Virus genome (UHGV): UHGV-1358930
DNA from: a virus
Length of the DNA: 64,000 bases
Strand: one strand, 5' to 3'
Position 1 is the first letter of the stretch. Each line of letters begins with the position of its first letter. This document shows positions 10,170-59,046 of this stretch, piece after piece. The translations under genes and the position numbers were made by a program. Under the pieces are notes generated by a model. It searched no databases, was not told the origin of the DNA, and saw only the letters and a list, made by a program, of their open reading frames with translations.

Positions 10170-10823
10170 ATGGATGTAGTAAAGAATATGCGTGGAAGTA
10201 TTTGGTGGTTGAAAGACGAATTTGATAAATACAAAGGTGAAAGAGGCATCCTTAGAGGTTCTAGGCCGGTTATCATTATGAATAATCCAGCAAACGAATA
10301 TAATGATTGCACTATTACATATTTGCCGATTTCTAAGTGCGAATCTCATGCTGGTGATGATAGTCGAATTCAAATGTTTTATCAGGTACCTATTCAGATT
10401 CCTGGTAATAAATCTAGTTATGTATGTTGTAATAGCATCATGACTACAACTACTTCTCATCTTGGAGAATATGTTGGGCAGATTTCAGAAGATAAGCTAA
10501 AAGAAGTCGAAGCCGAATTGATGCGTTATCTTTCTCTTTCTGAAAAAGTCGTTACACGAGAAGTAATAAAAGAGGTTAGGGATACAGACAAGGCAACGAA
10601 AACAACTTCTTTTTCTATTACAGACGCTGTCGCTTGTCCAGAACTCAAAAAAGTATATTCTAGTTGTACTGAAATGGCTAAAGATCTTAACTGCTCTCCT
10701 GCGTCTATCAGCAAGTCGAGTAGATGGGGAAGTAAGCTGATGCACAAATACACAGTGTTTAAAGTAGCAACGGCTGCTGGAAACTATGTTTGCAAAACTA
10801 AGGAGGAAATCAAAAATGAGTGA
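10170..10823 (+). CDS. MazF/PemK-fold endoribonuclease-like toxin domain fused to a ~100-aa C-terminal extension
   Basis: The N-terminal 120 aa align to MazF/Kid: IWWLKDEFD.YKGERGILRGSRPVIIMNNP...CTITYLPIS ... TTTSHLGEYVGQISEDKLKEVEAEL. The C-terminal part is HTH-like (ACPELKKVYSSCTEMAKDLNCSPASISK). Confidence 0.55.
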   Translation: MDVVKNMRGSIWWLKDEFDKYKGERGILRGSRPVIIMNNPANEYNDCTITYLPISKCESHAGDDSRIQMFYQVPIQIPGNKSSYVCCNSIMTTTTSHLGEYVGQISEDKLKEVEAELMRYLSLSEKVVTREVIKEVRDTDKATKTTSFSITDAVACPELKKVYSSCTEMAKDLNCSPASISKSSRWGSKLMHKYTVFKVATAAGNYVCKTKEEIKNE

Positions 10824-11775
10824 GCTACTTAATATTCCTGGAATTCTTTGGCAAGACCTAGGAACACGAACTGATTCAGAAAACACAACACTTGACAGCT
10901 TGATGACGAAAGCAGGTGCAAACTACACTGTATCTGCATACAAGATGTATACAGAAGTAGCAAACAGCGTACAAGGATATCATGCTATTTACAGAAATGA
11001 CGACAAACGTCTGATGTGTGTAGTAAATAATTTCTACCCTGAACTTGTTCAGAATAACATGACGTTTGCTCTCATGGAACCTCTGATGGCTGCGGGACTT
11101 GTATCATTTGAATTTTCGTCTGTAGCATCAGGTGGACTGTATCACTACGGTGTATTCAAATCTAATAAGACATGTAAGATCCTTAATGAAGATATTGAAC
11201 ATTATTTTCTTGTAGTGAATGATCATAGCAAGACTGATAGAAAAGTTTCTGTATTCAATCTGCCTGTACGAAAAAAGAATGAAACTATTCTTTTCTGCTC
11301 CATGACAAACAGTGCTTATAAGCTTCGTATGCCAGTTTCTGAAGATAACCTGTCCAATGAAGCTGCTGGCACTATGATCATGTCTTCGATTGATGACGCA
11401 TTCCTTTGGTGCGAAATCAAACTAAAAAAGCTATATAATAAGAAGATTGAGCTTGAGGACGTTGCTAAGGTTATGGACGAGTTGTTTCCTTACGTTTCTG
11501 CTTCAAATGGAGATCCGTTGGATACAAAAGCAAACGAAAAAGTTGACGAGCTCAGAAGCACCTTCCAAGAGTGCATTGATTCAGATGATAATGATGAATA
11601 TCGTCAAACTGCACTATATCTTTACCTTGGTATGCTAGATTATACGCAGCACTACTGGGCAAGTGCAGAAAAAGGATACGACATCAACAAGAAGATGACC
11701 GTAGTACCTGGATTCTTTACTTCGATTGATACAGAAGGTGCTAAAGTAGCTAAGCTGCTAAAAATGCTGAAGTAG
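10816..11775 (+). CDS. Hypothetical protein
   Basis: RBS AAGGAGGAAATCAAAA before the ATG at 10816. About 320 aa with no motif recognised. Confidence 0.55.
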   Translation: MSELLNIPGILWQDLGTRTDSENTTLDSLMTKAGANYTVSAYKMYTEVANSVQGYHAIYRNDDKRLMCVVNNFYPELVQNNMTFALMEPLMAAGLVSFEFSSVASGGLYHYGVFKSNKTCKILNEDIEHYFLVVNDHSKTDRKVSVFNLPVRKKNETILFCSMTNSAYKLRMPVSEDNLSNEAAGTMIMSSIDDAFLWCEIKLKKLYNKKIELEDVAKVMDELFPYVSASNGDPLDTKANEKVDELRSTFQECIDSDDNDEYRQTALYLYLGMLDYTQHYWASAEKGYDINKKMTVVPGFFTSIDTEGAKVAKLLKMLK

Positions 11776-11796
11776 TAAAATACAAAGTAAAAAATT

Positions 11797-11834
11797 GAGC
11801 CGAAGCGTGACAACTTCGGCTCTTTTATTATTTT
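11797..11834. terminator. Bidirectional rho-independent terminator between convergent genes
   Basis: GAGCCGAAG-cgtgacaa-CTTCGGCTC stem followed by TTTTATTATTTT. Confidence 0.65.
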
Positions 11835-12601
11835 AAGGAGAAAGTTTCTCTAACATTCATTGACGTATGTAATCTATTGTAAAGCATTGTTTCTGCAGTT
11901 TTTAGTTTACTTTTTACTGTTTTGCTATCTAATCCATACATATCACATATTTTAAATATATCAGAATCTGTAAGTTTGTGCTCTCTATCTATCATCTCTC
12001 TCATCAGAAGTTCTTCAATAGTATCATAATTATCAGAAGATAGGGAGGTTAATTCAATCGACGGGATGTCCTCAGAAGTCAAGAAGGGTTCATGCTTATC
12101 AAGATCAGCTATGTATAAGGTTCCAAATATGGCTTTTAATGAATCCATCTTATCTACAGGTAAATGTAACCTTGGATCGGATAGATCTTCGTATTTAACT
12201 TGACCCCAATGTTTACCTAACTGTTCTCCGACTTCCATACATAAAGATCTACGAATGGAGTATTTAACTTCGTTCAACTCTCTTTCAATCATCTCTCCTA
12301 TACGAAGTAAATAAAATACTGAAAACGATAGATCTTGTCTATATCCTTTATGTGTTTCATCACCCTGCCATTTGTACCACCAAAAACATTCACAAAAATG
12401 AGTCAGAGCTGATTGAAGTTTATCTTCATATGTAACAGTAGAATTGTTGATAAATGTTCTACTTGCTACATATCCAAAAAACGCATAGTTAAGCTCTATT
12501 ATCTCATCGCGTTGTTTGAAACATTTCATTCGCTCTGCTTTATTTTGTGGCATAGTCGAATATATGTCTAAGGTTCGTTGTTTTATTTCCTCATTAGTCA
12601 T
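11828..12601 (-). CDS. Sigma-70-family sigma-factor-like protein (phage transcription factor candidate)
   Basis: RDEIIELNYAFFGYVASRTF resembles sigma region 2.1-2.2. GYRQDLSFSVFYLLRIGEMIEREL resembles region 2.3-2.4 (GYKFSTYATWWIRQAI). A C-terminal HTH-like segment is present. It is the only long minus-strand gene in this part of the window. Confidence 0.45.
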   Translation of the reverse strand: MTNEEIKQRTLDIYSTMPQNKAERMKCFKQRDEIIELNYAFFGYVASRTFINNSTVTYEDKLQSALTHFCECFWWYKWQGDETHKGYRQDLSFSVFYLLRIGEMIERELNEVKYSIRRSLCMEVGEQLGKHWGQVKYEDLSDPRLHLPVDKMDSLKAIFGTLYIADLDKHEPFLTSEDIPSIELTSLSSDNYDTIEELLMREMIDREHKLTDSDIFKICDMYGLDSKTVKSKLKTAETMLYNRLHTSMNVRETFSLK

Positions 12602-13782
12602 TTTCTAGCACTCCCGTATCAATTGATGAAATTCTGAAATATTGAAATATTTAATAAACTGAGTAATGTGTAGAATATTGTGAAAACTGAAAATATGAAC
12701 CTTTGTTAATCTTACATGTAGAGGTATGTTTAAATCTACAAATATATTATATGAACTTAGTTAGCAGAAGTCAATGTAAATTAGCCAATTCATATCAAAA
12801 TTTTTATTGAAATCAGCAGATTTTCAGAATTTTGAAGTTTTACACAATTTGATCTAACTATAAAGCTAGATAGGAAATAACTATAACAAGCTGTTTGGCA
12901 TATAGATATGTTATAGCGAGACTTGAATAGCACTATAAGATAAATAACACGAACTTATCGCAATATCCGAAATTTAGAAATATTGAAGATTTGTGTATGG
13001 ATCATCTTAAACATTGAAATCTACAAAATCTACAATATCTGAAATTTTGAGATATTGTAAATTTGAATACTTTAACATACGTATATTGAATGTGCTTAAA
13101 AGATTAAATTTTCGTAAATTATTTTATTTATAGTTAAAATTTATGATTTGTTAATAGTTATAAACAGTATAAAAGTGATCTATTATTATAAGTGTCACCG
13201 TCTAGGTATATATGTATTCAATATATCATATAGTAGATATGTAAGTATTATATATCAAGCACATATCAAAATACTATAGCAAACTAAGTTATATAGGTAA
13301 TCCCTATATCAAGGTGTAATCTATATACAGTAATCCCTCACAGCGTAAGTTGAGCATAAACAATGAAATTGAGACATGTAGATATATTATCGCTATATAT
13401 CTAAACAAATTGATATAGTATTGACATATAGAGAATCACGTGATATTATAGCAAAACTTCATGGTTATGAAACTTCTATGTAACAAAATCAGTCAGAAAC
13501 CACCAAAATTTGAATATTTCAGAATATTGAAATTTCAATAATATGTAAATTTTACAATCTTTCAGAATCGTGAATATTTCAAAATATGAAAATTTCAACT
13601 TTCCGCTAAAATCACCAGAATTTAGTAAAATTGAAAGAATATGAAAATTTGATGCCTTCAATCTTTCAGAATCTGGTCATTTGGCCGCTTTAATATTATT
13701 AAAGAAATTAAAGTAATTAAAGTTATAATGTTATTAAAGTTATTTTAAAGGAATTAGCCAATTAAAGTAAAAAAGAATTAAA
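12602..13782. repeat. AT-rich ORF-free region with arrays of degenerate repeats (TTCAGAAT / TTGAAAT family and a TTAAAG iteron block)
   Basis: At least 7 copies of [T/C]TTCAGAAT-N2-4-TTGAAAT-like units lie near 12631, 12822, 12965, 13040, 13508-13600 and 13615-13670. Seven TTAAAG(T) units sit within 13695-13790. Confidence 0.5.
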
Positions 13783-13819
13783 GTAAAAACTCGCAAGCTC
13801 GTTTTTACTTTTTGGTTTG
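13783..13819 (+). terminator. Rho-independent terminator inside the noncoding region
   Basis: GTAAAAAC-tcgcaagctc-GTTTTTAC perfect 8-bp stem followed by TTTTTGGTTTG. No upstream + strand ORF, so it would terminate a noncoding transcript. Confidence 0.55.
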
Positions 13820-14119
13820 TAATCTGAGAACATAAATTCTGTCAGTAGATACCTCTATGCTGAAACGCATTGACGTACTTTTATGCGATCATGCGAAACA
13901 CATAGACGTGGGCGTGACCTAAACACTACAGTTGATACTGCACATGGTCGGTTCAAACTACGTAGTAGTTGAATTTTTGAGTAATTTGGTGGCGCTTGCG
14001 TTGAATATCTGTCTTCGTCTCGTGTATGCAACGCACGTATGAGTCTCATATGCAAAAAAAATATTCGCCAGCGCATTGGCAAATATCTGTTAGATTTCAA
14101 AAATTTATAAAATTCGGGG

Positions 14120-14148
14120 TTGACTTTTTGAAGCAGATACCTTATACT
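14120..14148 (+). promoter_or_regulatory. Sigma-A-type promoter (TTGACT-17-TATACT)
   Basis: TTGACT at 14120-14125, a 17-nt spacer, then TATACT at 14143-14148. Confidence 0.6.
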
Positions 14149-14154
14149 ATGGGT

Positions 14155-14615
14155 GTAGGTTCACCTAACAAGTTAAAACTCAGTTGAGCGTAGCACCTCG
14201 ACTACTTACTACTTCTGCTAGGCAGCTTCATGATAGAGTCAGCGCAAGATCGTCGAAGCAGGTAACTTGTTAGAAACCGAATCGTTAATGTACTTAGCAA
14301 ACCGCCACCAGGTAACTCCTATCGAGCTTGAAATTGAATAATCTCAAGATTGGTCAACAAAATCTTCTTTCAGAAGAGGCGCCAGTTTTGTACTCATCTT
14401 CTACTCACTTTTCGATAGGGGTGCTGGTAGTTGCTAAGCTATCAGTTTAGGTTTGCTAAAGTAGAAATAATCATCTACGTGAATTAGCCGGTATCTAGAG
14501 GTCGCTACTCGACGGTACGACGTTGTAGCATGCGTAGAAGCTGCAGCTGATGTGATGAGTGCAAAACTGACGCCTTTCTTTTGTTTATTTAGTAGTTCGG
14601 AGGGCTAAAGCATAC
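14155..14615 (+). other. Untranslated ~460-nt leader, candidate structured RNA
   Basis: No ORF between the promoter and the ATG at 14616. Local GC is higher than the flanks. There is a long-range complementarity: CCTAACAAGTTA at 14170 pairs with TAACTTGTTAG at 14262. Confidence 0.3.
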
Positions 14616-15983
14616 ATGGATATCTACACCGCAATGAATTCTATAAATAAGCTTGAAAATTTCATTATCAACGAATTTGATTTTGCAAAAGGAATGTATA
14701 GATCTACAATGACTAAGCTCAAAGAGATTGATAAGAAATGTAACGCAATTTCGACTAAATTGAATTCTTCTTTATCTGATGCAGGTGTAGAAGACAAAGT
14801 TAGTAAAGCTATCGAATTGACAAATCAGCTGAATATTTTGCTATCTGAGTTATCTGCGTCAGAAATTGAAAGTTCTAGAGAATTGAAAGAATCTTTCAAG
14901 TCTTGCGCAGCTATTTTTGTTATAGACGAAGATAAACCTCCAGCGACTGATAAGAGACTAGAAAATAAGCTAGATGCAATTTTAGATATATTGAAGAATT
15001 CTTCAATTTCTGATAAATTTACTAGTATTGAATCTAATCAATTTAATAAGCCTCTTGAAATTACAGAAAATGAGGATTCTAATGCGGTTGTGAGCAGATC
15101 CAGCGTTGCTGCAGATCAAATGAACGCATCTGAGACAGATTGCACTACTGTTGTTGATGTTAATCCTGTTTCATCATCTAACAATGAAGAACACACAAGT
15201 GCTTCTAATTCACTATCTTCAGATGTCAACCGGCGTCAGATATTCAAACGATTTGTCTCTACAATGGAGTATGCAAAGACTCATTCTACAAATTATCCAT
15301 TGGCTGACGTTGCAAAAGACTTGATTGTGGAGTGGTTTCAAGCTAGATTTTGTGATCCGACAACGCATTTCAAGTATAGACATCGAACTATTATAACTGG
15401 TATGTTGTCAATTACACTAGAAGTCGCTAGGAAGTATGCGTCATATTGTAAAGAGTCTTGGAGGCAGATATTAGATGTTTGGCCAAAGGTTAAGACGTCT
15501 GATATCTTAAGTGTCTCTTCTTTGATATCTGATATTCGTTCAAATAACATGCAATTTGCTTTGAGTTACGAGCTACAGTCTGCTATGTCAGATCCTGATG
15601 TTTTTGTTGAACGGTATGGTGAATATAAATTTACAGCAGTATGCGCTGAATATGTTTGGTACATACTTACTACTACAGTTTTTAAGAAAATCTGTGCAGA
15701 CGATGCATCTAACCATTTCGGAGTATCTGCAAGCTACTACATTACAAAACACAGTTTATGGGACTTGCTACTTAGCCATGAGGATAGCATCTATTTAGGT
15801 AATAAGGATATGTGTGATGTAGATGGTTACATATTTTCACCTGAAGGCATAGAATTCTGCGAAGACATGGAACTTAATCCGCATAAAATGGTTACTCATA
15901 TTGAAACGTATGACGCAGTCGATAAACATGATAAACATGTTGCAGCTAAGCAGGCGGAGAAGTTAGAGGAGGGCTTGATTTGA
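14616..15983 (+). CDS. Hypothetical protein (455 aa)
   Basis: RBS GGAGGG upstream. First gene after the promoter and leader. The N-terminus is coiled-coil-like. Confidence 0.55.
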   Translation: MDIYTAMNSINKLENFIINEFDFAKGMYRSTMTKLKEIDKKCNAISTKLNSSLSDAGVEDKVSKAIELTNQLNILLSELSASEIESSRELKESFKSCAAIFVIDEDKPPATDKRLENKLDAILDILKNSSISDKFTSIESNQFNKPLEITENEDSNAVVSRSSVAADQMNASETDCTTVVDVNPVSSSNNEEHTSASNSLSSDVNRRQIFKRFVSTMEYAKTHSTNYPLADVAKDLIVEWFQARFCDPTTHFKYRHRTIITGMLSITLEVARKYASYCKESWRQILDVWPKVKTSDILSVSSLISDIRSNNMQFALSYELQSAMSDPDVFVERYGEYKFTAVCAEYVWYILTTTVFKKICADDASNHFGVSASYYITKHSLWDLLLSHEDSIYLGNKDMCDVDGYIFSPEGIEFCEDMELNPHKMVTHIETYDAVDKHDKHVAAKQAEKLEEGLI

Positions 15984-17302: not shown

Positions 17303-17879
17303 TTGTATATATACACCATATTGTACATACAAACAATGCGACTTAGCTTGTCCTAATAGAGCTGAAGTGAATTGTTGGTTCAAACGATGCCGACTTGATA
17401 TGTCAAATAATTGCTTGCATACTAATATCCGAAATATTGAGAAAGCCGAGGATCTACTAAGTAACAAGTATGGAGAAACTGTGTGGTTTCCCACAGATAA
17501 TCCTTCAGATGCAAGCGACACTATTTGCTACGTAGCTATTTGCAAATATGGTAAAGGTACTGCTCTTGGAAACGGAATATACAATCTGGATTTTGCAAAA
17601 TTTATAGATATGATCAAGGAGTCCTGGAATACGCATTTTGAAACAGATAACTTAATTCAGATGCGTGTGTGGTCTTTGTCTGCAAATTACCTAGTTATCT
17701 CAAATCTAGATTATGTTAGATTTCAAGATTTTGAAAGTCAAACGTTGCTAAGGCTTCTGAATGATCGAAGAGATTATACAAAGACAACTGTAGTAGTTAC
17801 TAGTAAAGAACCTTTGGTCGGCAGCGGAAATTTCTTTCCTAGATTGACTTCTTTGCTAAAGGGGGTCAAGAGCAATTGA
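17295..17879 (+). CDS. Hypothetical Cys-rich protein (possible replication accessory or helicase-loader candidate)
   Basis: N-terminal Cys cluster CIYTPYCTYKQCDLACPNRAEVNCWFKRC. Translationally coupled to the helicase gene. Confidence 0.45.
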   Translation: MHDCIYTPYCTYKQCDLACPNRAEVNCWFKRCRLDMSNNCLHTNIRNIEKAEDLLSNKYGETVWFPTDNPSDASDTICYVAICKYGKGTALGNGIYNLDFAKFIDMIKESWNTHFETDNLIQMRVWSLSANYLVISNLDYVRFQDFESQTLLRLLNDRRDYTKTTVVVTSKEPLVGSGNFFPRLTSLLKGVKSN

Positions 17880-20299
17880 CGAATTCAGTAGAACTTCAAG
17901 TTATTTGTAAAATTTTAACAAGTCAAGATGATTCTGAAATTGATAGGCTGTGTGCGTTTGATGAATCCTATTACGCAGTATTCAAAGATCAGATCAAATT
18001 TATTCTAGATCATAGAGAAAAATATCATACTGTCCCAGACTTGTTTACGTTCCAAGCTCAATTCGAAGACATTGTTTTGATTGATGTAAACGAATCTGCA
18101 GATTTTTTAGTAGACGGACTTCGGAAAAACAAGCAGCAGATCATACTCTTACAAACATTCAATAAGCTATCTGAGTTAGGTTCTGCAGACGTTTCTGAAG
18201 CTTGGCAGTTCTTACAATCCCAATGCGACAAAGCTGCTCAACTTGATAATTCTAACCCGATGGATATCATCAAAGAAGCTCACAAGCGAAGTGATCAAGT
18301 TTTATCGCTAAGTAATCAAACAAGAATTCCTACAGGATTCAAAGAAGTAGATGAAACAATGTATGGAGGATTGTCAACTGTTGAAGAACTTTGTCTTGTA
18401 GTTGCTAGAACTAACACAGGTAAAGCTCAGCCTCTTTGGAGTAATATCTTAACACCTACTGGGTGGAAGCGTATGCGAGATATTCAAGTAGGAGACATTG
18501 TATGCGGTAGAGATAATGACAATGGTAAAGTAGTTCAAATATTTCCGCAAGGTACAATTGACTACTATCGTGTAAAGTTTGATGATGGTACTTATACGGA
18601 GTGTTCTGCAGATCATCTTTGGGAAGTTCTGGATAGTGAACGAAGGAAGCATGATAGAAAAACTTATGGTCAGTATCTTACATTGACTACTCGAGATATT
18701 CGGAATCATATGTATCGCAGATACTCTGTTGATATGTGTGAACAAATTGAATTCGAGAGTGCTTTTGATACAGATAGTGAACTTGACGGATATTTTTTAG
18801 GAGCATTTATCGGGCATGGTAGAAATGTAGGTAACAAGCTATATATTCATTCTCTGTCCGATGTTTCAAAGCGACGTATAATTGATGCATTGTCTAAATA
18901 TCGTTGTCAATTCACAGAAAATGATCCAAATACACTCGTGATTGAGGATAAGAATGATGGTAAGCTTATCCAAAAGATGTTCGAGTACAACTTGATGAAC
19001 TGCAAAGTCATTGATAGACATATTCCGGATATATATTTTCATAGCCCTGTAAATGTTAGAAAAGCTCTGTTATCAGGTCTCTGCGATACAGATAGCACAA
19101 TGTTATCAAAAAATCATAGAGGTTGGGTTTTCGTTACATCTTCAGATCAGCTTAAATCTGATTTTGTTTACATTGCTAGATCTTTAGGTGTAAAAGCAAA
19201 GGTGTCGACTGCAAGATCTGGTAGATGGGTTGACTTAGGTGTATCGCACGTTGCGAATACGTACCACAGGGTTATGTGTATCTCAAAATTCAATCCGTTT
19301 TATGGTTCACCAAATTACACAGAATTTGAACGCAGACAGGATAAAACTAAATTTAAAAATCGCAAGCGTGTTTGCAAATTCATTGATTCTATTGAATACG
19401 TAGGTAAGACGGAATGCCAGTGTATCATGGTAGACAATAAGACGCATACATATATTACAGATGATTTTATTGTCACACATAACACCTGGGTTACTACTAA
19501 GATGATGGAGTCTGCACAAGCGAATGGATTTCCTGTACTATATTATAGCCCAGAGATGCAATCTGCTTTCATTGGCACACGATTTGATACCTGGAGAGGT
19601 CACTTCCGAAATAGCGATATTCAACGAGGTAAATACAGCGAAGACTACATTCAGTACATCAAAGACATTGTTAAAGAGGAAACTGGTGCATTTGTTGCAG
19701 AAGACAAAGATATGCCAGGAGGAAAAACAACTGTCAGGTCGATTGAAACTCTAGTCAAGCGACATCATATAAAGCTTGTTATCATTGATGGTCTGTCTTA
19801 TATGGCAGATACAGAAAAGTCTGATAGCGATGTTATTAAGTATAAAAATATATGTACTGGACTATTCCGAATGTCTAAAACATATGGATGTGCTGTAGTA
19901 GTATCTGTACAAGCTAATAGAGACACTAAATCTAATGTCGATGACAAAGGAGTCCCGTGGCCTGATATGTATTCGATTGAAGGCTCAGACCATCCAGGAC
20001 GTATTGCAACTCAAGTATTTGCGCTTCGACAATTGTACGAAGAGCATACATTAGAGATAAAGCTGTTGAAGACTAGAAATGCAAAGAATGCAAATCCTAC
20101 GTTCGCATATGTATGGGATCCAAATACAGGAAACACAGAGTTTGTTTCGGATGATGCATCGGCTGCTCCTCCTTCTGCTCCTGCACAGCCTAGCAAGTTC
20201 TCAACGCCGACAGTGTCAGCAAAGATTGTACACACCGATATAGATGATAATCTAATCGATGCCAGTACAGATGACGATCTAGATGACGTTGAGTTTTGA
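17876..20299 (+). CDS. dnaB: DnaB-like replicative DNA helicase, interrupted by an intein (precursor ORF)
   Basis: Exteins read IPTGFKEVDETMYGGL..ELCLVVARTNTGK | TWVTTKMMESAQANGFPVLYYSPEMQ, i.e. Walker A GK|T split exactly by the insertion. Downstream DnaB motifs are KLVIIDGLSYM and SVQANR. The acidic C-terminal tail is DDDLDDVEF. Confidence 0.8.
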   Translation: MTNSVELQVICKILTSQDDSEIDRLCAFDESYYAVFKDQIKFILDHREKYHTVPDLFTFQAQFEDIVLIDVNESADFLVDGLRKNKQQIILLQTFNKLSELGSADVSEAWQFLQSQCDKAAQLDNSNPMDIIKEAHKRSDQVLSLSNQTRIPTGFKEVDETMYGGLSTVEELCLVVARTNTGKAQPLWSNILTPTGWKRMRDIQVGDIVCGRDNDNGKVVQIFPQGTIDYYRVKFDDGTYTECSADHLWEVLDSERRKHDRKTYGQYLTLTTRDIRNHMYRRYSVDMCEQIEFESAFDTDSELDGYFLGAFIGHGRNVGNKLYIHSLSDVSKRRIIDALSKYRCQFTENDPNTLVIEDKNDGKLIQKMFEYNLMNCKVIDRHIPDIYFHSPVNVRKALLSGLCDTDSTMLSKNHRGWVFVTSSDQLKSDFVYIARSLGVKAKVSTARSGRWVDLGVSHVANTYHRVMCISKFNPFYGSPNYTEFERRQDKTKFKNRKRVCKFIDSIEYVGKTECQCIMVDNKTHTYITDDFIVTHNTWVTTKMMESAQANGFPVLYYSPEMQSAFIGTRFDTWRGHFRNSDIQRGKYSEDYIQYIKDIVKEETGAFVAEDKDMPGGKTTVRSIETLVKRHHIKLVIIDGLSYMADTEKSDSDVIKYKNICTGLFRMSKTYGCAVVVSVQANRDTKSNVDDKGVPWPDMYSIEGSDHPGRIATQVFALRQLYEEHTLEIKLLKTRNAKNANPTFAYVWDPNTGNTEFVSDDASAAPPSAPAQPSKFSTPTVSAKIVHTDIDDNLIDASTDDDLDDVEF
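18425..19483 (+). mobile_element. Class-3-type intein (353 aa) with LAGLIDADG endonuclease domain in DnaB
   Basis: Starts with Ala (AQPLWSNILTPTGW) directly after GK of the P-loop. Ends FIVTHN followed by +1 Thr. The block B segment SADHLW, the Cys in block F (ECQCIMVD) and the Thr before HN form the WCT triad. LGAFIGHG and LSGLCDTDS are LAGLIDADG motifs. Confidence 0.75.
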
Positions 20300-27207: not shown

Positions 27208-28476
27208 TTGAGTTTATTTACCAAGTCACAAATGGCGAAATTCAATGAAGTTGCCGAACGAAGCAAACAGCTTAACAAAGAAAAACCAAAGTCTGTAAAT
27301 GTATCTACAGTAAATGCGGAATTGAAGTCGATGTCAGATTCTGTGCTAGAATACTTCAAAGACTCCCCTGCTATCTGCATTCGAACCGCTGATCAGCTAC
27401 ATGAATACATTGATAAATGTATCGAAGCTGGATACGCTGGTATAGATACAGAAACAACGGGACTAGACAGACAAAGAGATTACATTGTAGGCGCGTCTTT
27501 ATATTATCCGGATGGTACAGAATGTTATATTCCGATGAAACATAAGATCCCTATTTTCGAAACTCCTTACAAAAATCAACTGTCTTATGAAGAAGTAACT
27601 AAAGAATTCAAACGACTAGAAAACAGCAACATACGACTCATTTTTGCAAATGCTGACTTCGACTTAGCAATGATCTACAAGGATCTAAAAGTTGATTTCA
27701 ACGATAGATTCTATTATGATGTTATTCTTGCATGGCGTTGTTTGAAGGAGAATGAGTTACACAATGACTTGAAATTCCTTTACAATAAATATGTATTGAA
27801 AGGAAAAGGAGATCCTAAACGTTTTAGCGATTTCTTTTCTGTAAAGCTGTTCCCATATTCTGATCCTGAAATCGCTAAATTGTACGCAGCAAACGACGCA
27901 AAAATCACATTTCAACTGTTCAAGTGGCAGCTTCCTTATGTTACAGAAAGTCATCCTAAGTGTCAGAAAGCTCACCTAGAAGCAATATCTAGACTCATTT
28001 GGAACATAGAGTTTCCACTGGTTAAAGTCTGCCAGAATATGTATAGAAGAGGTTCATACATTGATTCTAATGTTGCTAGTGTTTTGAAAAAGCGATACAG
28101 AGATGAATACAATGTAGAAGTCAAAAAGCTACAAGACATGGTACAAAAAATCATTGATAATACGAATATAGCATATTCAGGTAAACGTCCATTTACTAGA
28201 GGAGCAGATTTCAACCCATCTTCACCTCCTCAAGTTAAATATTTGATATACAATCTACTTCAAATTCCTAAAGGATCGTCTTCTGGAACAGGTAAAGAAG
28301 TATTGAACGAACTTAATCTGCCTGTAACAAATCAGATACTGAAGGTAAGATCTCTATCTGTACTTATCAATACATTCGTAGAGAAGCTACCAGCTGCCGC
28401 AAGTCTGGATCATAGAATTCATGGTCAGTTCAAGCAGGTGGGTGCAGCCACGGGCAGGTTGTCTTGTGCCGAGCCT
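27208..28476 (+). CDS. polA: DNA polymerase I (family A) exon 1 (3'-5' exonuclease domain and start of the polymerase domain)
   Basis: TTG start after AAGGAGG. DnaQ-like exonuclease motif GIDTETTGL. Ends ...RIHGQFKQVGAATGRLSCAEP, which is the conserved family-A stretch HT.FNQ.GTATGRLSSS(D/E)P. The next expected residues NLQNIP are absent here and resume at 29383. Confidence 0.8.
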
Positions 28477-29382
28477 AAACATGATAAATCAGATTGGGCT
28501 CGTAAAATCGAGTTAATTCAGGGAAGGGTAGCAGCTTGACGCTGTGAGATAACCCTGAGCCAAGGCTCTCATATATCTACTTAGGAGGTACACGATATGA
28601 GAAAGATTCAATTCAATGAAGAGACCATCAATGCAATTAAAAATTTTATAGAGTCTGGTCACACAATGGAAGAGACATGTAACAGATTTACGCTCAAATA
28701 CGATACATTGAAACGTGTAATGTTTGAGAACAATCTGAAGCCGTATAGAGCAGATAAATCACATCCCGTTATCTTCACTAGAGATGAGGAAAACATCGTA
28801 TGTAAGCTATATTCGACAACTTCAATGACAATGAAAGATATCTGTAAAGAAGTGAAGCTACCTGATTACGCTGTGCAGAAAATACTATCGGATAATTTTT
28901 CTGAAAAATACAGAAATGAAAGGAAAGCAAAGCTTTATAGATTGTCCAAACGGTGCGAGAATAGTCCGTGGTTTCAGAAATACGGAGCAGACTCTTCTCA
29001 GTGGGTCGGAGGCGTTGTAGACGATGGCAACGGATATGATATGATCAAAAAACCTGAGTGGTACACAGGTAGAAAGTGTTCTGATTATGTCTTTTTACAT
29101 ACAGTTGTGATGTGTGAGCACTTAGGTCTAACTGAACTTCCTAAAGGATATGTAGTACATCATATCGACGGAAACAAGAAAAATAACACAATAGATAATT
29201 TAGCGTTGATGACCGTGTCAGGACACAGTAAGTTACATTTGTTGATGAAGAATCTATGCAAGGTGCAGAGACTATCCGAACAGGAGTAAGCGAAAGCTGA
29301 AATGCTAGACAATGGTTGTGTATGACATCTATCATTCCTACTAGTTATACAAGCCATCGAAGATATAGTCCACAAATAATTG
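28477..29382 (+). mobile_element. Group I intron 1 in polA carrying an HNH homing endonuclease gene
   Basis: The exon-1 reading frame terminates prematurely after the conserved motif. S-element AAGATATAGTCC lies at 29361-29372, about 10 nt before a G at the 3' boundary. The 5' exon ends in T. Confidence 0.7.
28597..29289 (+). CDS. Intron-encoded HNH homing endonuclease
   Basis: YVVHHIDGNKKNNTIDNLALMTVSGHSKLH. RBS AGGAGG. Confidence 0.8.
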   Translation: MRKIQFNEETINAIKNFIESGHTMEETCNRFTLKYDTLKRVMFENNLKPYRADKSHPVIFTRDEENIVCKLYSTTSMTMKDICKEVKLPDYAVQKILSDNFSEKYRNERKAKLYRLSKRCENSPWFQKYGADSSQWVGGVVDDGNGYDMIKKPEWYTGRKCSDYVFLHTVVMCEHLGLTELPKGYVVHHIDGNKKNNTIDNLALMTVSGHSKLHLLMKNLCKVQRLSEQE

Positions 29383-29475
29383 AACCTGATGAATATCCCG
29401 TCGCATGCGGTTGATATTCGACATATGTTCAGAGCAACTCCCCAGAAAGATTACACAGTTGAATCAGAAGTAGAT
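29383..29475 (+). CDS. polA: polA exon 2 (about 93-nt micro-exon, boundaries approximate)
   Basis: Encodes NLMNIPSHAVDIRHMFRATPQKDYTVESEVD, which aligns to NLQNIPVRT..GRRIRRAF.APE.YV.VSAD and ends at the motif-A catalytic Asp. Confidence 0.6.
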
Positions 29476-30818
29476 GACAATAACGAAGTATCATTCGTTA
29501 TTGATAATGGACATGAATTACAAACATCTGAAGGATATAAGCCAGTAGTAGATATTGTTCCCGGAGATGTTGTAATGTTTGATGATAAGGAGGTATCAAG
29601 CTTAATTGTCAAAGAAGTTGAAACTAAAGGTACGTCAACCCGAGTACGTTTTGATGTCATCTGACTACAGTTTACGAAAGTTGGCTGTAGTAAAACCTTG
29701 TTAAGTCGATGAATACTTGATAGATAATTCTATAACCTAAATACAAGAATTGGTTCGACTATCAAGTTAATATCGAGCAAAATAGGACCTTTTATCTTGT
29801 TGAGTATAGTCTCTTAAAAATTGGAGGTATTCGACATGATAATATATAAAATATACAATGATGTTAATTCTAAGCTTTACATCGGTCAAACAACAAAATC
29901 GCTTGAAGAAAGAATAAATGGGCATCATTCTTCTATGATAGGAGGGCAAGATACTCATCTATATCGAGCAATGCGAAAATACGGATGGGAAAAGTTTCAT
30001 TTTGAAATAATATCCAGAGCTGATAGTCAAGATGAATTAAATTATCTTGAAGAGTATTATATCCGTAAGTTAGATACAATAAGAAATGGATATAACATGG
30101 CTCCAGGAGGATCAAAAAATGTTATGTACTCATCTATCGTAGCAGCTAAACATGATGCTAAAATGAGAACAGATTCTGTAAGAAAGAAAATATCAGAATC
30201 AATGAAAAAGTCTTATGCTTCACGCGGTGGTCCCTCAGAAGAACACAGGAAGCATCTTTCACAAGCCAAGAAGGAATATTATCAAACTCCTGAAAGCGAA
30301 TTGACACGAGAAAGGTTTAGAAAGTCATTCAAGCTATCTCCTGAGCATTATAAGGCACTGAATGACGCGAAAAACAAAAGTGTATATTGCATAAATGAAT
30401 CTAATGAAGTAGTTGCAAAATTTGATAGGGTCAAAGATGCAGCTATTTGGTGGATGTCTACTGGGTACAAAGTTAAACATTATGATCAACTTTGTGACAA
30501 AATAAAAGAGTCCAGCAAGCAAAATAGATTCATAAAGGGGCTAAAATGGTTCTATTGTGTGTAGAGACTATCGAAAGCTAGAAATTGACATTCAGAGAAA
30601 TCTGTAAATGATTTTAGGTAAATCAGGTCAGTTGAGATAACCAAGTGAGTAGAGTACAGCTCAAGTGAGTTAGCATCTGCATGATATTAGTGTAGAGTAA
30701 GCCTATTGAATGGAAATTCAAGGGTTCATTTGAATTGGTGATAGATTCAAATGTTCAAGAGATAGTCCGGCACTCTTGGTGACAAGAGAAATGTTTAACG
30801 AACATTCAACTAATTAAG
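29476..30818 (+). mobile_element. Group I intron 2 in polA carrying a GIY-YIG homing endonuclease gene (boundaries approximate)
   Basis: Motif A is interrupted after the catalytic Asp. An S-element-like AGAGATAGTCC lies at 30759-30769. A G precedes the proposed 3' splice site at 30818. Confidence 0.6.
29836..30564 (+). CDS. Intron-encoded GIY-YIG homing endonuclease (I-TevI-like)
   Basis: IYKIYNDVNSKLYIGQT..ERINGHH...YGWEKF..EII is the GIY-YIG module. RBS GGAGG sits 8 nt before the ATG at 29836. Confidence 0.8.
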   Translation: MIIYKIYNDVNSKLYIGQTTKSLEERINGHHSSMIGGQDTHLYRAMRKYGWEKFHFEIISRADSQDELNYLEEYYIRKLDTIRNGYNMAPGGSKNVMYSSIVAAKHDAKMRTDSVRKKISESMKKSYASRGGPSEEHRKHLSQAKKEYYQTPESELTRERFRKSFKLSPEHYKALNDAKNKSVYCINESNEVVAKFDRVKDAAIWWMSTGYKVKHYDQLCDKIKESSKQNRFIKGLKWFYCV

Positions 30819-31025
30819 CAGCAAGAACCAAAAATTTGCGCATACGTAGGTAACATCAAAGAACTTTGCGAAGGTTTTGCAAACGGGAAAGATGCTTACG
30901 CGATGATCGCAGCTGTTTCTTTCAATAAGTCATATGAAGAATGCTTAGAGTTTCACCCTGTTACGCATGAGTATCAGCCTGAAGGTAAAGCAAGAAGAAC
31001 AGAATCGAAGTCCGTACTTTTGGGT
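30819..31025 (+). CDS. polA: polA exon 3 (boundaries approximate at the 5' side)
   Basis: QQEPKICAYVGNIKELCEGFANGKDAYAMIAAVSF...KARRTESKSVLLG aligns to [31 protein letters not shown]..F...RRAAKTINFG. Confidence 0.6.
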
Positions 31026-32047
31026 GAACGTAAAAGTTATGCCCCATATTTCAAGTTCTCGCATTAAATTTGCTTGAAATATGAAAATCTTGTGAACTAC
31101 ATTGCTCATAGGTGTTGAGAACACGATTAGGATATACAGGAAATGGTATATAGGTTCTCAGCTAACTGGGGATACTCAAAAGAGTGAATCCAGTGCCAAG
31201 CATCAAGTCTTCACGGAGTTCTATACCTTACATCATATCGGAGGTGTAGAACTTGAACAATTATTCATCATACATCATAACTTGTAAGGACAATGGAATG
31301 CAATACATCGGAATAACTTCTATTGGTTTAAGAAATAGGTGGTATGCACATGTTTCATGTTCTCGAAATTTAAGTAGTAATAATCCAATGTATAAGGATA
31401 TGAAAGAATTTGGAGAATCCTCTTTTGAAATACATGAAATTGAATCTGGGTTATCAAAAGAAGAAGCCGATGCGCGTGAAAAGGAACTAATAAAGATTTA
31501 TAATACAAAGTGGCCTAACGGATACAACTTAACAGACGGTGGATTCAAGAATGATGGACAGTTATTACCAGAAGGTCGATCGGCTAGAATATCTTGTAAG
31601 CTACGCGGAGTTCCTAAATCAAGCGAGCATAGATTGCATCTAAGTCAGTCTAGGATTGGAAAATACAAAGGAGCAGACAACGCCTTCTATGGTAAACATC
31701 ATTCTGATGAAACTATATTGAATCTTCAGAAGCTATTATCCCACGGAAAGGTTTATCAGTTAGACAAAAAATCTAAATTAGTTGTAGGCACATTTGATAG
31801 CGCAGCGTTTGCAGCAAGATACATATCTGAAAACAAATTATCTTCTGCAAAAATAGATACTATAAATGCTAGATTATGCGAAGTTATGAACAATGATAAT
31901 CGTTCCGCATACGGTTTTATGTGGAGACGCGATGAAGGTCAATCGACTAAGTATTAGAAGAGAAAATAGAGCTACTCTTCGAAGCGCAAGACATTAAGCG
32001 AGATAATGATGATATAGTCAGCGCCACAAGTGATTGTGGACTAAGTG
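31026..32047 (+). mobile_element. Group I intron 3 in polA carrying a GIY-YIG homing endonuclease gene
   Basis: Splits the KxINFG|VLYG motif. S-element-like ATGATATAGTC lies at 32006-32016. The 5' exon ends in T (31025) and the intron ends in G (32047). Confidence 0.65.
31253..31957 (+). CDS. Intron-encoded GIY-YIG homing endonuclease
   Basis: SYIITCKDNGMQYIGITSIGLRNRWYAH. TTG start 6 nt after GGAGGTG. Confidence 0.75.
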   Translation: MNNYSSYIITCKDNGMQYIGITSIGLRNRWYAHVSCSRNLSSNNPMYKDMKEFGESSFEIHEIESGLSKEEADAREKELIKIYNTKWPNGYNLTDGGFKNDGQLLPEGRSARISCKLRGVPKSSEHRLHLSQSRIGKYKGADNAFYGKHHSDETILNLQKLLSHGKVYQLDKKSKLVVGTFDSAAFAARYISENKLSSAKIDTINARLCEVMNNDNRSAYGFMWRRDEGQSTKY

Positions 32048-33544
32048 GTACTTTACGGACGTTCTATTCCTTCAATTGCTGATCAGTTATATGGCAAACG
32101 AGACGATATGACAGGTGAGCAGAAACTAAAAGCAGCTCAGAAGGTGTTTGACGCAGTTATGGGAGCTTTTCCTGGACTGAAAAATCTAATGATCGGGTCT
32201 CAAGATTTTGCAAGAAAGCACGGATATACGGAAACAATTTTAGGTAGAAGACGACATATTCCAGATATGCAGCTGCCTGAATTTGAATTTAAGGCGATGA
32301 AAGGATATGTTAATCCTGATATTGACCCGACAGATATCACTACGCTGGAAAACAAAGATGAGATCCCCGAAAGAATTGTAAACGAGCTTTACAAAGAATT
32401 TAAAACGTACAAATACTACGGTCAAATCGCAAAGCGTACAAAGCAGCTATATGAAGAAGATCATATTAGGGTGATAAATAATAGACCTAAGATAAATGAT
32501 GCAACTCGTCAGTGTGTTAACTGTGTTGACTTCGATACTGAGATACTAACAACAGACGGATTCAAAAGATATGACGAGGTATCTATAGGCTACACGATTA
32601 TTTCATATAACTTAGCTAAAGACTGCTTAGAGGAAGATGCCATTGAAGGTATTCATATCGATGATAGAGATGTTAAGGGATATGAATTCAATGCGCCGGA
32701 GCTATCTTGCGTATGCACAGATAATCACAGATGGGTTATTCAAGATACTCTGTATGAACACCCTGAAATCGTGACAGCTGAAGAATACGTCTGTGATTAT
32801 GGTTGTCTATTCCCGATTTTAGCATCCGCTGGATCTGAATTACCTGGATCGTTTGGAGAATATTCTCAAGCAGAGTTCGGTGTATTAGCATATCTACTTT
32901 ACTACAATGCAATCAGGTTAATTGAAAACGGTACTACGTGGCTAACATTCAAGTGGAATAGCCCTAATCAGAAATCGTTTGATTCACTTATTCAGTTTCT
33001 TCGTAGCACAAAGTTTGATTATCAGATAAGTAGCACAGGTGATCCAGTATGCACAGAAGTAAAGATTGCATACAATACATTTTTATTCGATGTGTATACT
33101 AGCCTCAAGGGCAACAAACTAACCAATGAGTTTGTAAGCTTATTATCCGGTGAGCAAGCTTCTCAGCTTTGGTGGACATTTGCATACCTGAAAAATCCGG
33201 ATTTAAAGCTAGATGAGAATATTTCAATTGTTTTTGACAGCTTGTCTGACGCAGATGTATTTCAGCATCTCTGCTATCGAGCAGGACATTTTAGCAGATG
33301 CATTCCGCTAAAGGATATGATTGATGCGGTAGATGAGCCACACATTGAAGACAGAATTCAGGAGCCTTCTAACAATCAATATGTAGTTACTACATATCAG
33401 CATAACACTGTCAATATGTGGGACAAGCGATATGTAAAACGAACAACATTACACGGCTGCTGGTGCGTAACTACTAACAACGGAACATGGGTTGCTAGAC
33501 GAAATGGTTCTGTATTTCTCACAGGCAACTCTATTATTCAGGGT
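32048..33544 (+). CDS. polA: polA exon 4 including an in-frame intein
   Basis: VLYGRSIPSIADQL...ILGRRRHIPD aligns to VLYGMSA..L...TLFGRRRY.PD. Extein ...NDATRQCVN, then intein, then SIIQG, which aligns to AERMAFNMPVQG. Confidence 0.7.
32522..33529 (+). mobile_element. Intein (336 aa) in polA
   Basis: Starts with the canonical CVDFDTEILTTDGFKRYDEV. Ends ...VFLTGN followed by +1 Ser. The penultimate residue is Gly rather than His. Confidence 0.7.
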
Positions 33545-33899
33545 AGATACTTGCTGCCCTTATCTATCTAACCTTATTGCTCAAGGGTGTGCTCATATAT
33601 TTGAGTGCTAACGGTATCAGTGACATAAGACTGCTTCACGAAGCGAGAGAGATGTGAAGCTCTTCTACTAGTAGAAGATCCATAGACGAATCAGCTGACT
33701 AAGAAAGCCTAAGGTCTAATTATTCAATTAGATAGCTGGTAATACCGTGTCAAGTGCACCTTATACAGGGTGTAAAGATGTATCGACTAGCTCGCGTTGT
33801 TGCGAGGGTAGGTCTGAAGACGAGCTGCAGACTGAAATGGTAGACTGCAATTATTTTGCAGAAGATATAGTCAGGTTGTATGGAAACATGCATTGCTGC
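33545..33899 (+). mobile_element. Group I intron 4 in polA, ORF-less (about 355 nt, boundaries approximate)
   Basis: The frame ends 5 codons after IQG. Perfect S-element AAGATATAGTC at 33864-33874. P7-like CAGACTGAAATGGTAGACTG. Exon sequence resumes at TSAAELTKMAI, which aligns to GTAADIIKRAMI. Confidence 0.55.
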
Positions 33900-34412
33900 A
33901 CGAGCGCGGCGGAACTTACAAAGATGGCTATTTTGAAGCTTGAGAACAACAAGGAATGGCAGAGAATTGGAGGAAGATTACTGGTACCTATCCACGATGA
34001 ATTGCTGACAGAAGTCCCTGCACGTTATGCTGAGGAGGGTGCAAAAATCCTATCGGATTCAATGTGTGGAGCTGCAGATTTCATGCCGTTTCCAATTACA
34101 TGTGACGTTGAGACTACTTATCGATGGTATGGTATGGCATATCCTTGTCCTTACAAGAAACCGAATTCTATCGACACGAATGATGAAGATGAGATAAAGT
34201 GGATTCAGTATCATCTAAGAGAATCCGAATACCTGCTGCCAGTACTGAAGGACGAAAACGGTGAAAAACCTAGAGGTGATGCAGCCAAGGGTGTAAACGG
34301 TGTTAGAACCCCTGAAATGGAATCTGCTATTGAAGATTATATTAAATCTCGACATATTTTAAAAGAAGATTTCATTGATACTATTGATCGAGAGGTTGAC
34401 ATCGGCGGATAG
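33900..34412 (+). CDS. polA: polA exon 5 (motif C and C-terminus)
   Basis: TSAAELTKMAILKL...RLLVPIHDELLTEVP aligns to TAADIIK.AMI...MIMQVHDELVFEV. Confidence 0.7.
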   Translation, partial: TSAAELTKMAILKLENNKEWQRIGGRLLVPIHDELLTEVPARYAEEGAKILSDSMCGAADFMPFPITCDVETTYRWYGMAYPCPYKKPNSIDTNDEDEIKWIQYHLRESEYLLPVLKDENGEKPRGDAAKGVNGVRTPEMESAIEDYIKSRHILKEDFIDTIDREVDIGG

Positions 34413-58746: not shown

Positions 58747-59046
58747 GTGTCTCGTACATCGTTGAATATATCTTACATTGGTTACGAAACAATAACAATG
58801 CTTACAGACCAATTCAGATTCGAAAATCTGATGAGATATTGGAGAAAAGATGGCATGACTGTATTTGATTTGCTTGTCTACAGCAAGAATGTTTATGATG
58901 TAGACTTTATAGACACTGAAGGAGCCATTTTAGATAAAATGAGCATTGCAAAAGCGATTGCAAGTAAATATTCAAATATGTCAGTAATTGAATACACGCC
59001 TTCTCTACTCTGTAATGGATCAATTGAGCTAATCATATGCGTGTAA
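58747..59046 (+). CDS. Hypothetical protein
   Basis: 99 aa. Confidence 0.4.
   Translation: MSRTSLNISYIGYETITMLTDQFRFENLMRYWRKDGMTVFDLLVYSKNVYDVDFIDTEGAILDKMSIAKAIASKYSNMSVIEYTPSLLCNGSIELIICV

Follow-up and report, generated by a model that had tools for sequence, protein, structure and literature searches.

The subject of this study is a gene for a family-A DNA polymerase (PolA) at positions 27208–34412 (+) of a 64,000-nucleotide (nt) stretch of viral DNA, UHGV virus genome UHGV-1358930, whose full length is called the window below; coordinates are window positions. We consider it about two-thirds probable (0.68) that this locus encodes the replicative family-A DNA polymerase of an uncultured phage, whose genome would measure roughly 125–165 kb, and that it carries six intervening elements: four group I introns, one intein, and a cassette in exon 2 that probably divides the product between two polypeptides, PolA-N and PolA-C. 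The number and mix of elements (4 + 1 + 1 in about 7.2 kb) are extreme.

The gene was laid out from an open reading frame (ORF) listing and three-frame translation. It starts with TTG at 27208 and ends with a stop codon at 34410–34412, and its conceptual product matched the polymerase domain (DNA_pol_A, E = 1.5e-64) and the 3'-5' exonuclease domain (E = 5.5e-14) in Pfam. Boundaries were placed from P1 pairing, from the rules that a U precedes a group I intron and a G ends it, and from alignment to homologues. A scan of IMG/VR with exon 1 gave 21 related loci (designated by L numbers) on contigs of 13.5–171 kb, with 57–100% identity, on which the conceptual product was placed by tblastn. The polymerase gene was uninterrupted in L006, L007, L008, L014, L015, L016 and L018. 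With the introns, intein and cassette removed, the window product aligned to the 854-amino-acid (aa) L006 PolA with 0 gaps, at 83% and 79% identity in two blocks; exon 1 was 83% identical, again without gaps, to L006 residues 1–423. The catalytic motifs (DYSQQEP, K..LLGVLYG, QGSAAE and HDE) were all intact. Megablast of the window against 50,697 phage records gave no match, and the best tblastn identity among deposited phages was about 33% (Bacillus phage Flasso, Clostridium phiCTP1 and Streptococcus Dp-1).

An initial annotation of the window had described five polymerase exons, four group I introns and an intein, with one spliced protein of about 850 aa. The location of the gene and the order of its segments were borne out by Pfam and by the gapless alignment, as were the end of exon 1 (...CAEP, 28476) and the limits given for exons 3 and 4. 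The proposed start of exon 2 (NLMNIPS, 29383) also stood, whereas its end (SEVD, 29475) did not: the 5' splice site lies after SSDYS at 29671, and the exon thought to be about 93 nt long is 289 nt. Exon 5, placed from 33900 (TSAAEL), begins with AGC at 33903 (SAAEL) after the terminal intron G at 33902, since relatives read QGSAAD in the L006 alignment. The product aligned to PolA as expected, but it is not encoded by one ORF of about 850 aa, because the cassette brings a stop and a frame change into exon 2; this exon is 3n + 1 nt long with an internal frame change, so the five exons make no single ORF.

Table 1. Features of the polymerase locus.
Feature	Position	Strand	Length	Description
Exon 1	27208–28476	+	1269 nt, 423 codons	3'-5' exonuclease domain and N-terminal portion of the polymerase domain; ends ...ATGRLSCAEP
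Intron 1	28477–29382	+	906 nt	Group I (very probable)
ORF in intron 1	28597–29289	+		HNH homing endonuclease
Exon 2	29383–29671	+	289 nt (3n + 1)	Starts NLMNIPS; three-frame translation
Fracture cassette	29443–29641	+	about 199 nt	Relative to uninterrupted alleles; edges uncertain by a few nt; flanks ACT CCC / CAA CCC
PolA-N C-terminal extension	29443–29664	+	about 73 aa	QKDYTVESEV...RVRFDVI, stop TGA 29662–29664; partial Hint (intein-like) fold, predicted
Putative PolA-C start signals	29587–29608	+		Shine-Dalgarno AAGGAGGT 29587–29594, TTG 29606, leader MSKKLKLKVRQPE
Intron 2	29672–30818	+	1147 nt	Group I, IA-type (very probable)
ORF in intron 2	29836–30564	+		GIY-YIG, in P6 loop
Exon 3	30819–31025	+	207 nt	QQEPKICAY...KSVLLG; gapless alignment to L006
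Intron 3	31026–32047	+	1022 nt	Group I (very probable)
ORF in intron 3	31253–31957	+		GIY-YIG/NUMOD3
Exon 4	32048–33544	+	1497 nt	VLYGRS...RQCVN / intein / SIIQG
Intein (little doubt)	32522–33529	+	1008 nt, 336 aa	In frame, CVDFD...LTGN, between CVN and SIIQG in exon 4
Intron 4	33545–33902	+	358 nt	Group I (very probable), ORF-less
Exon 5	33903–34412	+	510 nt	SAAELTKMAIL...HDE (motif C)...stop; gapless alignment, L006 reads SVVQGSAADL

Candidate group I introns

The earlier claim of four group I introns and an in-frame intein within conserved motifs agreed with the splice-site rules, RNA covariation, intron-less and intein-less alleles and structure prediction. For the four introns, the splice-site rules, covariation and intron-less alleles make the assignment very probable. 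All four followed a U that pairs with a G in P1, the P1 helices being GAGCCU/GGGCUC (intron 1), CUACAGU/GCUGUAG (intron 2), GGGU/GCCC (intron 3) and AGGGU/GCCCU (intron 4). The last intron nucleotide, omega-G, was found at 29382, 30818, 32047 and 33902, and was likewise G in 15 of 15 related introns examined. Each intron contained an R-like element (...GACUA...) and an S element (...AUAGUC...) that pair to give P7. The S-element sequence AAGATATAGTC, with at most one mismatch, occurred on the + strand at 29360, 30757, 32009 and 33862, and a count over both strands of the whole 64-kb window gave 6 matches, where 2.3 were expected. Chance falls far short of explaining four same-strand S elements in 7.2 kb, each just 5' of an inferred 3' splice site. 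The distances from S element to 3' splice site were 12, 51, 28 and 30 nt for introns 1 to 4, so the 10–30 nt spacing given previously holds for three introns but not for intron 2. Removal of the introns restored the frame and the conserved sequence, without gaps over all four junctions relative to L006 PolA.

The other two matches to AAGATATAGTC, with one mismatch, were at 11612–11622 (−) and 58764–58774 (−), within chance expectation.

In intron 1 the R-like sequence GCAGAGACUAUCC at 29270 pairs with the S sequence AAGAUAUAGUCC at 29360 to form P7, and in intron 3 the corresponding sequences are AAUCGACUAAG at 31945 and AUGAUAUAGUCAG at 32009. The structure of intron 2 was modelled by aligning four introns from the same site, giving P1, P3, P4, P5, P6, P7, P7.1/P7.2, P8, P9, P9.1 and the P3/P7 pseudoknot. 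In this model of 84 pairs in 14 helices, 93.8% of cells were paired, compared with about 37% when partners were slid. Both sides had changed in 32 of the 84 pairs, and the observed values were reached by 0 of 500 shuffles, a count that is not a probability, as the model was built from the same sequences and these represent three or four lineages. Covariation was seen in P1, P3, P4, P6 and P7, for example CCUUG/CAAGG versus CUCCC/GGGAG in P3 and GACUAU/AUAGUC versus GGGCAU/GUGCUC in P7. P1 fixes the 5' splice site of intron 2, and an A>U change in the L009 exon (TAC to TTC) is compensated in the guide (CUUCAGU/GCUGAAG). P7.1/P7.2 lies between P7 and P3', as in subgroup IA. The L009 intron is a 393-nt ORF-less twin with ribozyme parts 93–97% identical to those of intron 2; relative to it, the GIY-YIG ORF of the window is an insertion in the P6 loop.

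Intron 4 had been called ORF-less, and indeed no ORF longer than 52 aa was found in it. It has its S element at 33862, P8 (CUGCAA/UUGCAG) and P9 (GUAUG/CAUGC), and in L004 and L021 its site holds homologous introns that bear homing endonuclease genes (HEGs). RNAalifold on these three introns gave 97 pairs, 23 of them with compensatory changes, and nested CUGACUA(33695)/UAGUCAG as P7. By analogy with intron 2, we prefer GACUA(33785) as the P7 strand, with P7.1/P7.2 before P3' GGUAGA.

The 5' part of intron 4 (33577–33754) showed 70–85% identity with DNA that flanks HEGs in Enterocloster phages (CB473P1 and relatives), Bacillus phage G, Prevotella Lak megaphages and Fusobacterium phage Fnu1. In phage G the matching DNA is the tail end of the DnaE-like gp329, and the homing endonuclease gene gp330 follows directly. 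From this similarity, the 5' part appears to be a widespread intron lineage, mostly unannotated in those phage records.

The three HEGs reported earlier in introns 1 to 3 were recovered in Pfam as HNH_3 (E = 8e-13), GIY-YIG (E = 3.5e-10) and GIY-YIG with NUMOD3 (E = 7e-11), respectively. The 3' ends of these ORFs run into the R element, the 5' strand of P7, at 29265–29289, 30555–30570 and 31940–31957, and the stop codon of the intron 2 HEG is the UAG of GUGUAGAGACUA. Because of this overlap, translation of the HEG and folding of the core would be mutually exclusive. An Rfam match to mir-1902 at 30041–30112 (+), inside the intron 2 GIY-YIG ORF, scored 30.5 bits against a gathering score of 80 and was treated as chance.

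Each insertion site was both filled and empty among the 21 related loci. Besides the window, site a (AEP|NL, intron 1) was occupied in L021; site b (DYS|QQEP, intron 2) in L009, L013 and L017; site c (LLG|VLYG, intron 3) in L005, L012, L021 and L024; site d (CVN|SIIQG, the intein), by in-frame inserts, in L009, L011, L012, L020, L021 and L023; and site e (IIQG|SAA, intron 4) in L004, L010, L012, L013, L021 and L024. Site a was empty in L004–L011 and L014–L016. The nearest relative, L012, has exons 98–99% identical to those of the window and lacks introns 1 and 2; with nearly identical exons and other elements, these near-identical phages differ in the selfish elements that occupy polA. The introns were 89–97% identical across phages, compared with 73–75% for exons; intron 3, for instance, was 89% identical between the window and L005, and its flanking exons 73–75%. 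Greater conservation of the introns than of the surrounding exons is a signature of horizontal spread.

In place of introns 1 and 2, L012 (11243–12448), and likewise L022 (about 11246–12457), has a 402-aa intein at GAA|TGR (CIVGNSIIPT...FISNGMISHN|T), which in L012 matched Intein_splicing (E = 2e-13) and LAGLIDADG_3 (E = 8e-4) in Pfam. In L021 (10509–11886), an apparent intein start (CIEGSQLIDTTEGEKPIKDIRIGDNVY...) and the 3' half of a group I intron (R CAGAGACUAUCC, S AAGAGAUAGUCC) lie between GRMS and NLQNIPS, so that this region seems to hold two elements within a few codons.

Inteins in the polymerase and helicase genes

There is little doubt, from its sequence motifs and predicted fold, that the 336-aa insert in exon 4 is an intein, which would excise itself by protein splicing. 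It starts CVDFDTEILT, contains Cys1, TEILT, TDNH (block B) and WCVTTNNGTWVARRNG, and ends WCVTTNNGTWVARRNGSVFLTGN (TGN) before Ser+1. Cys1, TDNH, the terminal Asn336 and Ser+1 were invariant in six site-d inteins and nine database homologues, and several of the homologues were carried by other, unrelated proteins, among them a phosphoesterase and a methyltransferase. The site was empty in L004–L008, L010 and L014–L019, and held a diverged intein in L009, L011, L020, L021 and L023. A sequence profile of the family matched the AceL NrdHF intein (E = 0.0014). The AlphaFold2 model (predicted local distance difference test, pLDDT, 87.4; predicted template modelling score 0.86) consists of a Hint domain and a LAGLIDADG-fold domain. 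In Foldseek it matched the TliVMA intein (E = 3.2e-11) and PI-SceI (E = 7e-11), with endonuclease-containing inteins spanning 3e-11 to 5e-9, and the central domain matched the I-DmoI fold (E about 1e-4). The predicted junction after excision is RQCVN-SIIQGSAAELTK, and the predicted spanning peptide is CVNSIIQGSAAELTK.

The LAGLIDADG motifs were intact in L009/L011 (LLGWIMTDGY, LMWAMIEGDGT) and degenerate in the window (LAYLLYYNAI, LWWTFAYLKNP). The acidic residues are lost, so the nuclease of the window copy is probably inactive. In L020 (12041–12793) and L023 (12282–13031) the site-d intein is 250–251 aa long, with the same Hint blocks and a reduced central domain without LAGLIDADG motifs. 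By sequence, the site-d copies would be successive stages in the decay of a single intein family, from 341 aa (active-looking) through 336 aa (degenerate) to 250 aa (reduced). Like the PI-SceI, Tli/Pho VMA and PI-PfuI inteins, the window intein has Hint and LAGLIDADG-fold domains with Cys1, TxxH, a terminal Asn and Ser+1; it differs from them in its penultimate Gly (TGN), in the loss of the acidic LAGLIDADG residues and in its PolA site, CVN|SIIQG.

The DnaB-like helicase gene of the window (17876–20299 (+); Pfam DnaB_C, E = 1.4e-12) has an intein of its own. This 353-aa insert (about 18425–19483) directly follows Walker A (ARTNTGK|AQPLWSNILTPTGW...DDFIVTHN|TWVTT) and includes a Hom_end domain (E = 1.2e-5). 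Its first residue is Ala, not Cys or Ser, a Trp follows the block-B His, and block F has a Cys, which suggests a class-3-type intein. Elsewhere in the window, 12601–14616 has no ORF of 120 aa or more.

The cassette in exon 2 and the two-chain model

The cassette follows MFRATP, where uninterrupted relatives read RATPGYVMLGSDFSQQEPK (RATPGYVML). It was present in the window and in L012, L013, L017, L019, L021, L023 and L024, and absent from L004–L011, L014–L016, L018, L020 and L022. In frame 0, exon 2 encodes NLMNIPSHAVDIRHMFRATP followed by an extension that includes the peptide GYKPVVDIVPGDVVMFDDK. In frame +1 it encodes ...EYVLMSSDYS, where the D of SSDYS is the motif A Asp; this frame opens no earlier than 29606, and the overlap between the ORFs is 59 nt. 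The frame arrangement of L012 is identical. The relation of the ORFs varies in the other lineages: the +1 frame with an overlap of 59–65 nt in L017 and L019, the +2 frame with a TGATG stop/start in L013, the same frame with TAA and then ATG in L024, a 215-nt gap in L021, and in L023 an 877-nt gap, between a stop at 10664 and a start at 11544, with a 282-aa HNH-like ORF (10653–11501). In all seven distinct cassette lineages, however, a Shine-Dalgarno sequence lies 6–12 nt before an ATG or TTG, and this start is 10–13 codons before the Y or H of YVLMSSDYS, irrespective of reading frame and of how far away the upstream stop lies.

The extension is clearly conserved as a protein. The window and L012 differed by seven substitutions in exon 2. 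Read in frame 0 up to the stop, and in frame +1 at 29668, all are synonymous; exon 1 showed 12 synonymous and 2 non-synonymous changes. Among 5.8 billion proteins, homologues of the extension were found in only 13 clusters; 13 of 13 terminated at the same point, and none was fused to the downstream polymerase. A tblastn search of deposited phages with the extension found nothing. Its AlphaFold model is a small all-beta domain (pLDDT 77–92), and its profile matched best, in the PDB, the gp41-1 split intein (E = 0.011) and, in Pfam, Hint_2 (E = 0.06). No catalytic intein residue was conserved in the extension alignment, and the catalytic blocks A, B, F and G of an N- and C-intein were not encountered in the cassette.

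Taken with the constant start signals, these results make it likely that the product is two polypeptides, PolA-N and PolA-C, and not one 850-aa protein. The following sequence of events is proposed. A single pre-mRNA would be transcribed from the whole gene, and four IA-type group I introns, three of them with HEGs (HNH, GIY-YIG and GIY-YIG) in peripheral loops, would excise themselves. PolA-N (516 aa) would be translated from exon 1 and frame 0 of exon 2, ending in the Hint-like tail at the stop at 29662. PolA-C would be initiated internally, from its own Shine-Dalgarno sequence, at the TTG at 29606 in the +1 frame, giving a 759-aa precursor. Self-excision of the 336-aa intein would join ...RQCVN to SIIQG... 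and leave 423 aa. The two chains, which together cover all of L006 PolA, would then assemble non-covalently, the break falling immediately ahead of motif A, in the tip of the palm beta-hairpin. The initial annotation had named polymerase fragments expressed as split subunits as an outcome at odds with its spliced product; such subunits are probable at the exon 2 cassette only, and not at the four intron sites.

The cassette appears to be a decayed fractured gene, in which a free-standing endonuclease gene had entered a split intein: L023 keeps an HNH gene between the halves together with a Hint-like extension and without a working intein. L023 thus has the HNH gene between an N-terminal and a C-terminal ORF, as fractured genes do, and in the window the ORFs overlap with no endonuclease gene between them. 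Tentatively, the Hint-like tail and the leader of about 10 aa may be a fossil split intein that has lost its splicing chemistry and now acts as a non-covalent clasp, and the cassette (tail, optional HNH gene, Shine-Dalgarno sequence, start and leader) may be, or have been, a mobile element that fractures genes and passes from one phage polA allele to another. That the Hint remnant aids chain assembly is speculation.

Several observations weigh against this account of the locus. No intron in the window or in seven related loci reached the gathering score (50 bits) of the Rfam model Intron_gpI (RF00028), a search that the initial annotation had proposed; at gathering score, the scan returned nothing for the window and tRNAs only for the seven loci. 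In E-value mode there were two sub-threshold Intron_gpI matches, to intron 4 (23.9 bits, E = 0.008), the only one in the window, and to the L024 site-e intron (26.5 bits); the model cannot span the three ORF-bearing introns. Introns 1 and 3 were modelled at the level of P1, omega-G and P7 only, and in P4–P6 of intron 4 there are two candidate GACUA strands, both invariant in the three sequences. The window intein alone gave no Pfam or PDB sequence match, and its penultimate residue is Gly throughout the family, in place of the usual His. Replacements of this His are tolerated in some inteins. The spacer between the GGAGG core and the window TTG is long, at 12 nt. Finally, the break falls within the palm beta-sheet, across which the two chains would have to reassemble into an active enzyme.

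The arrangement of exon 2 could be accounted for in other ways. A programmed +1 ribosomal frameshift within 29606–29661 would give one chain with a Hint-like insertion in the palm hairpin, with ribosomes that do not shift yielding a truncated N-terminal product. The downstream frame is +1, with overlaps of 59–65 nt, in the window, L012, L017 and L019, both frames are conserved over the overlap, and an ACC CGA G context with the rare CGA codon is found where homology to the uninterrupted enzyme resumes. We nevertheless regard a frameshift as unlikely, as the frame relation is +1 in these four loci but +2 in L013 and 0 with a stop in L024, and in L021 and L023 the ORFs are separated by long gaps. 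The loci have no canonical slippery site in common, and the conserved feature is instead a Shine-Dalgarno sequence and start at a fixed distance from YVLM. A single protein of about 855 aa would also result if the insert of about 193–199 nt were a fifth intervening sequence removed from the RNA, or were bypassed by a ribosomal hop of the T4 gene 60 type. The 3n + 1 length is consistent with this, since removal restores the frame exactly (ATP|EYVLM versus ATPGYVML), and the CCC codons that flank the insert in the window are possible take-off and landing sites. An intron here would, however, have no group I core, R or S element, no U at its 5' edge and no G at its 3' edge, and Rfam found nothing there. 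Frame 0 is open for the full length, with a conserved, confidently folding domain and synonymous substitutions. As for a hop, the flanking Pro codons differ in six of seven lineages, with Ala on the 5' side in L024, no stop follows the putative take-off codon, and the gap spans 193 to about 1200 nt, 4 to 24 times as much as in gene 60 (50 nt). With splice-site rules and core elements missing and flanking codons unmatched, both forms of this explanation were rejected as very improbable.

Two further alternatives concern the state of the cassette and of the gene. The extension and leader could be a working, extremely reduced split intein that joins PolA-N to PolA-C by protein trans-splicing. This would suit the fractured-gene layout with HNH in L023 (PMC2677866) and the Hint-like extension with its best sequence match to the gp41-1 split intein, and by eye, as an unscored impression, the leader MSKKLKLKV resembles the start of the gp41-1 C-terminal intein fragment, IntC (MMLKKILKIEEL). 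There is, however, no conserved Cys or Ser at the candidate starts (the aligned position is S, S, I, V, T, F and Q) and no TxxH block B. The leader of 10–13 aa, too short for a C-intein, has neither block F/G nor a terminal Asn, the +1 residue is Tyr or His, and both parts together total less than 100 aa, below any known mini-intein. With its catalytic blocks missing, a working split intein was rejected and is the least credible of the explanations considered. Scarcely more probable is that polA is decaying into a pseudogene, or that the frame break arose in assembly. The selfish-element load is extraordinary and the intein endonuclease motifs are degenerate, but the substitutions relative to L012 are all synonymous in exon 2 and mostly so in exon 1, and the catalytic motifs and the neighbouring replisome genes (DnaB-like helicase, clamp-loader-like ATPase and PD-(D/E)XK nuclease) are intact. 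The same frame break occurs in the independently assembled L012 contig and the same architecture in six more divergent lineages, so sequencing error was discarded as its cause. Two chains remain the preferred reading of exon 2.

Known systems and implications

The introns and the intein belong to known kinds. Phage polymerase genes of Bastillevirinae hold up to three introns according to a 2025 survey (PMC11878797), and Pf-WMP3 has an IA2 intron with a nicking HNH endonuclease (PMC3428280). Like the introns of SPO1, Bastille and other Bastillevirinae, Twort and K-like staphylococcal phages, T7-like phages and Pf-WMP3, those described here are apparently of IA type and lie in the most conserved polymerase motifs, with HNH or GIY-YIG ORFs in peripheral loops and patchy occupancy among close relatives. 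They differ in that the window has no megablast match to deposited phages and that Rfam RF00028 stays below threshold. Four introns would take this gene one step past the published maximum of three per phage polymerase gene, with an intein and a gene fracture in addition.

RNA-level and protein-level splicing also occur together in Bacillus prophage SPbeta, whose ribonucleotide reductase genes bnrdE and bnrdF reportedly contain group I introns and an intein, as Lazarevic and colleagues are said to have found in 1998. In both cases the two are combined in an essential gene of nucleotide metabolism in a Firmicute-type phage. The gene here encodes PolA and not a ribonucleotide reductase, and SPbeta has fewer elements and a coding sequence that is not fractured into two ORFs.

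In the fractured genes of Dassa et al. (2009), the source of gp41-1, a split intein and a free-standing homing endonuclease lie between gene halves, and later loss of the endonuclease gene is predicted (PMC2677866). The present locus is similar in the Hint-like end of the N-terminal ORF, the HNH gene between the halves in L023, the separate start of the C-terminal ORF and the identity of the gene as a replication enzyme, and the window lacks an endonuclease gene, as the model predicts. It differs in having no Cys/Ser1, TxxH, terminal Asn or +1 nucleophile, and in an IntC of about 10 residues. As these catalytic residues are absent, trans-splicing is not expected, and the halves would stay non-covalently associated. 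Enzymes divided between ORFs are known from Aeromonas phage Aeh1, where mobE splits nrdA, and from the split PolB of T4-like phages (gp43) and archaea (PMC2677866); split DNA polymerases of OM43 phages have been noted and left unexplained (PMC10580990). As in Aeh1 nrdA/mobE and split gp43, whose chains reassemble, an essential phage enzyme would come from a pair of neighbouring ORFs, which in some cases flank an HEG. Those proteins have no conserved Hint-like extension, whereas the polymerase described here is of family A, is broken at the palm hairpin before motif A, and has ORFs that overlap out of frame. A Hint-remnant fracture of a family-A polymerase is new within the fractured-gene theme.

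To make an active replicase, the phage would need four RNA splicings, one protein splicing, an internal start and probably the assembly of two chains. Gene callers and Rfam miss such loci, which end up in annotations as a series of short polymerase pieces. The 21 related metagenomic phages, in which elements have entered about 1.3 kb of coding sequence at eight or more different sites, are a natural experiment in homing, and the ORF-less and ORF-bearing intron twins and the element swap bear on homing itself, on how neighbouring elements compete and on how endonucleases are gained and lost. If the two-chain reading is true, this is a family-A polymerase broken inside the palm, and it suggests that a split intein, though degenerate, can survive as a domain for chain association, which bears on the evolution of fractured genes and on split-polymerase engineering. 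If the Hint-like tail is indeed a clasp, the locus would document an end-state of the fractured-gene pathway, in which an intein has been domesticated as a subunit-association module.

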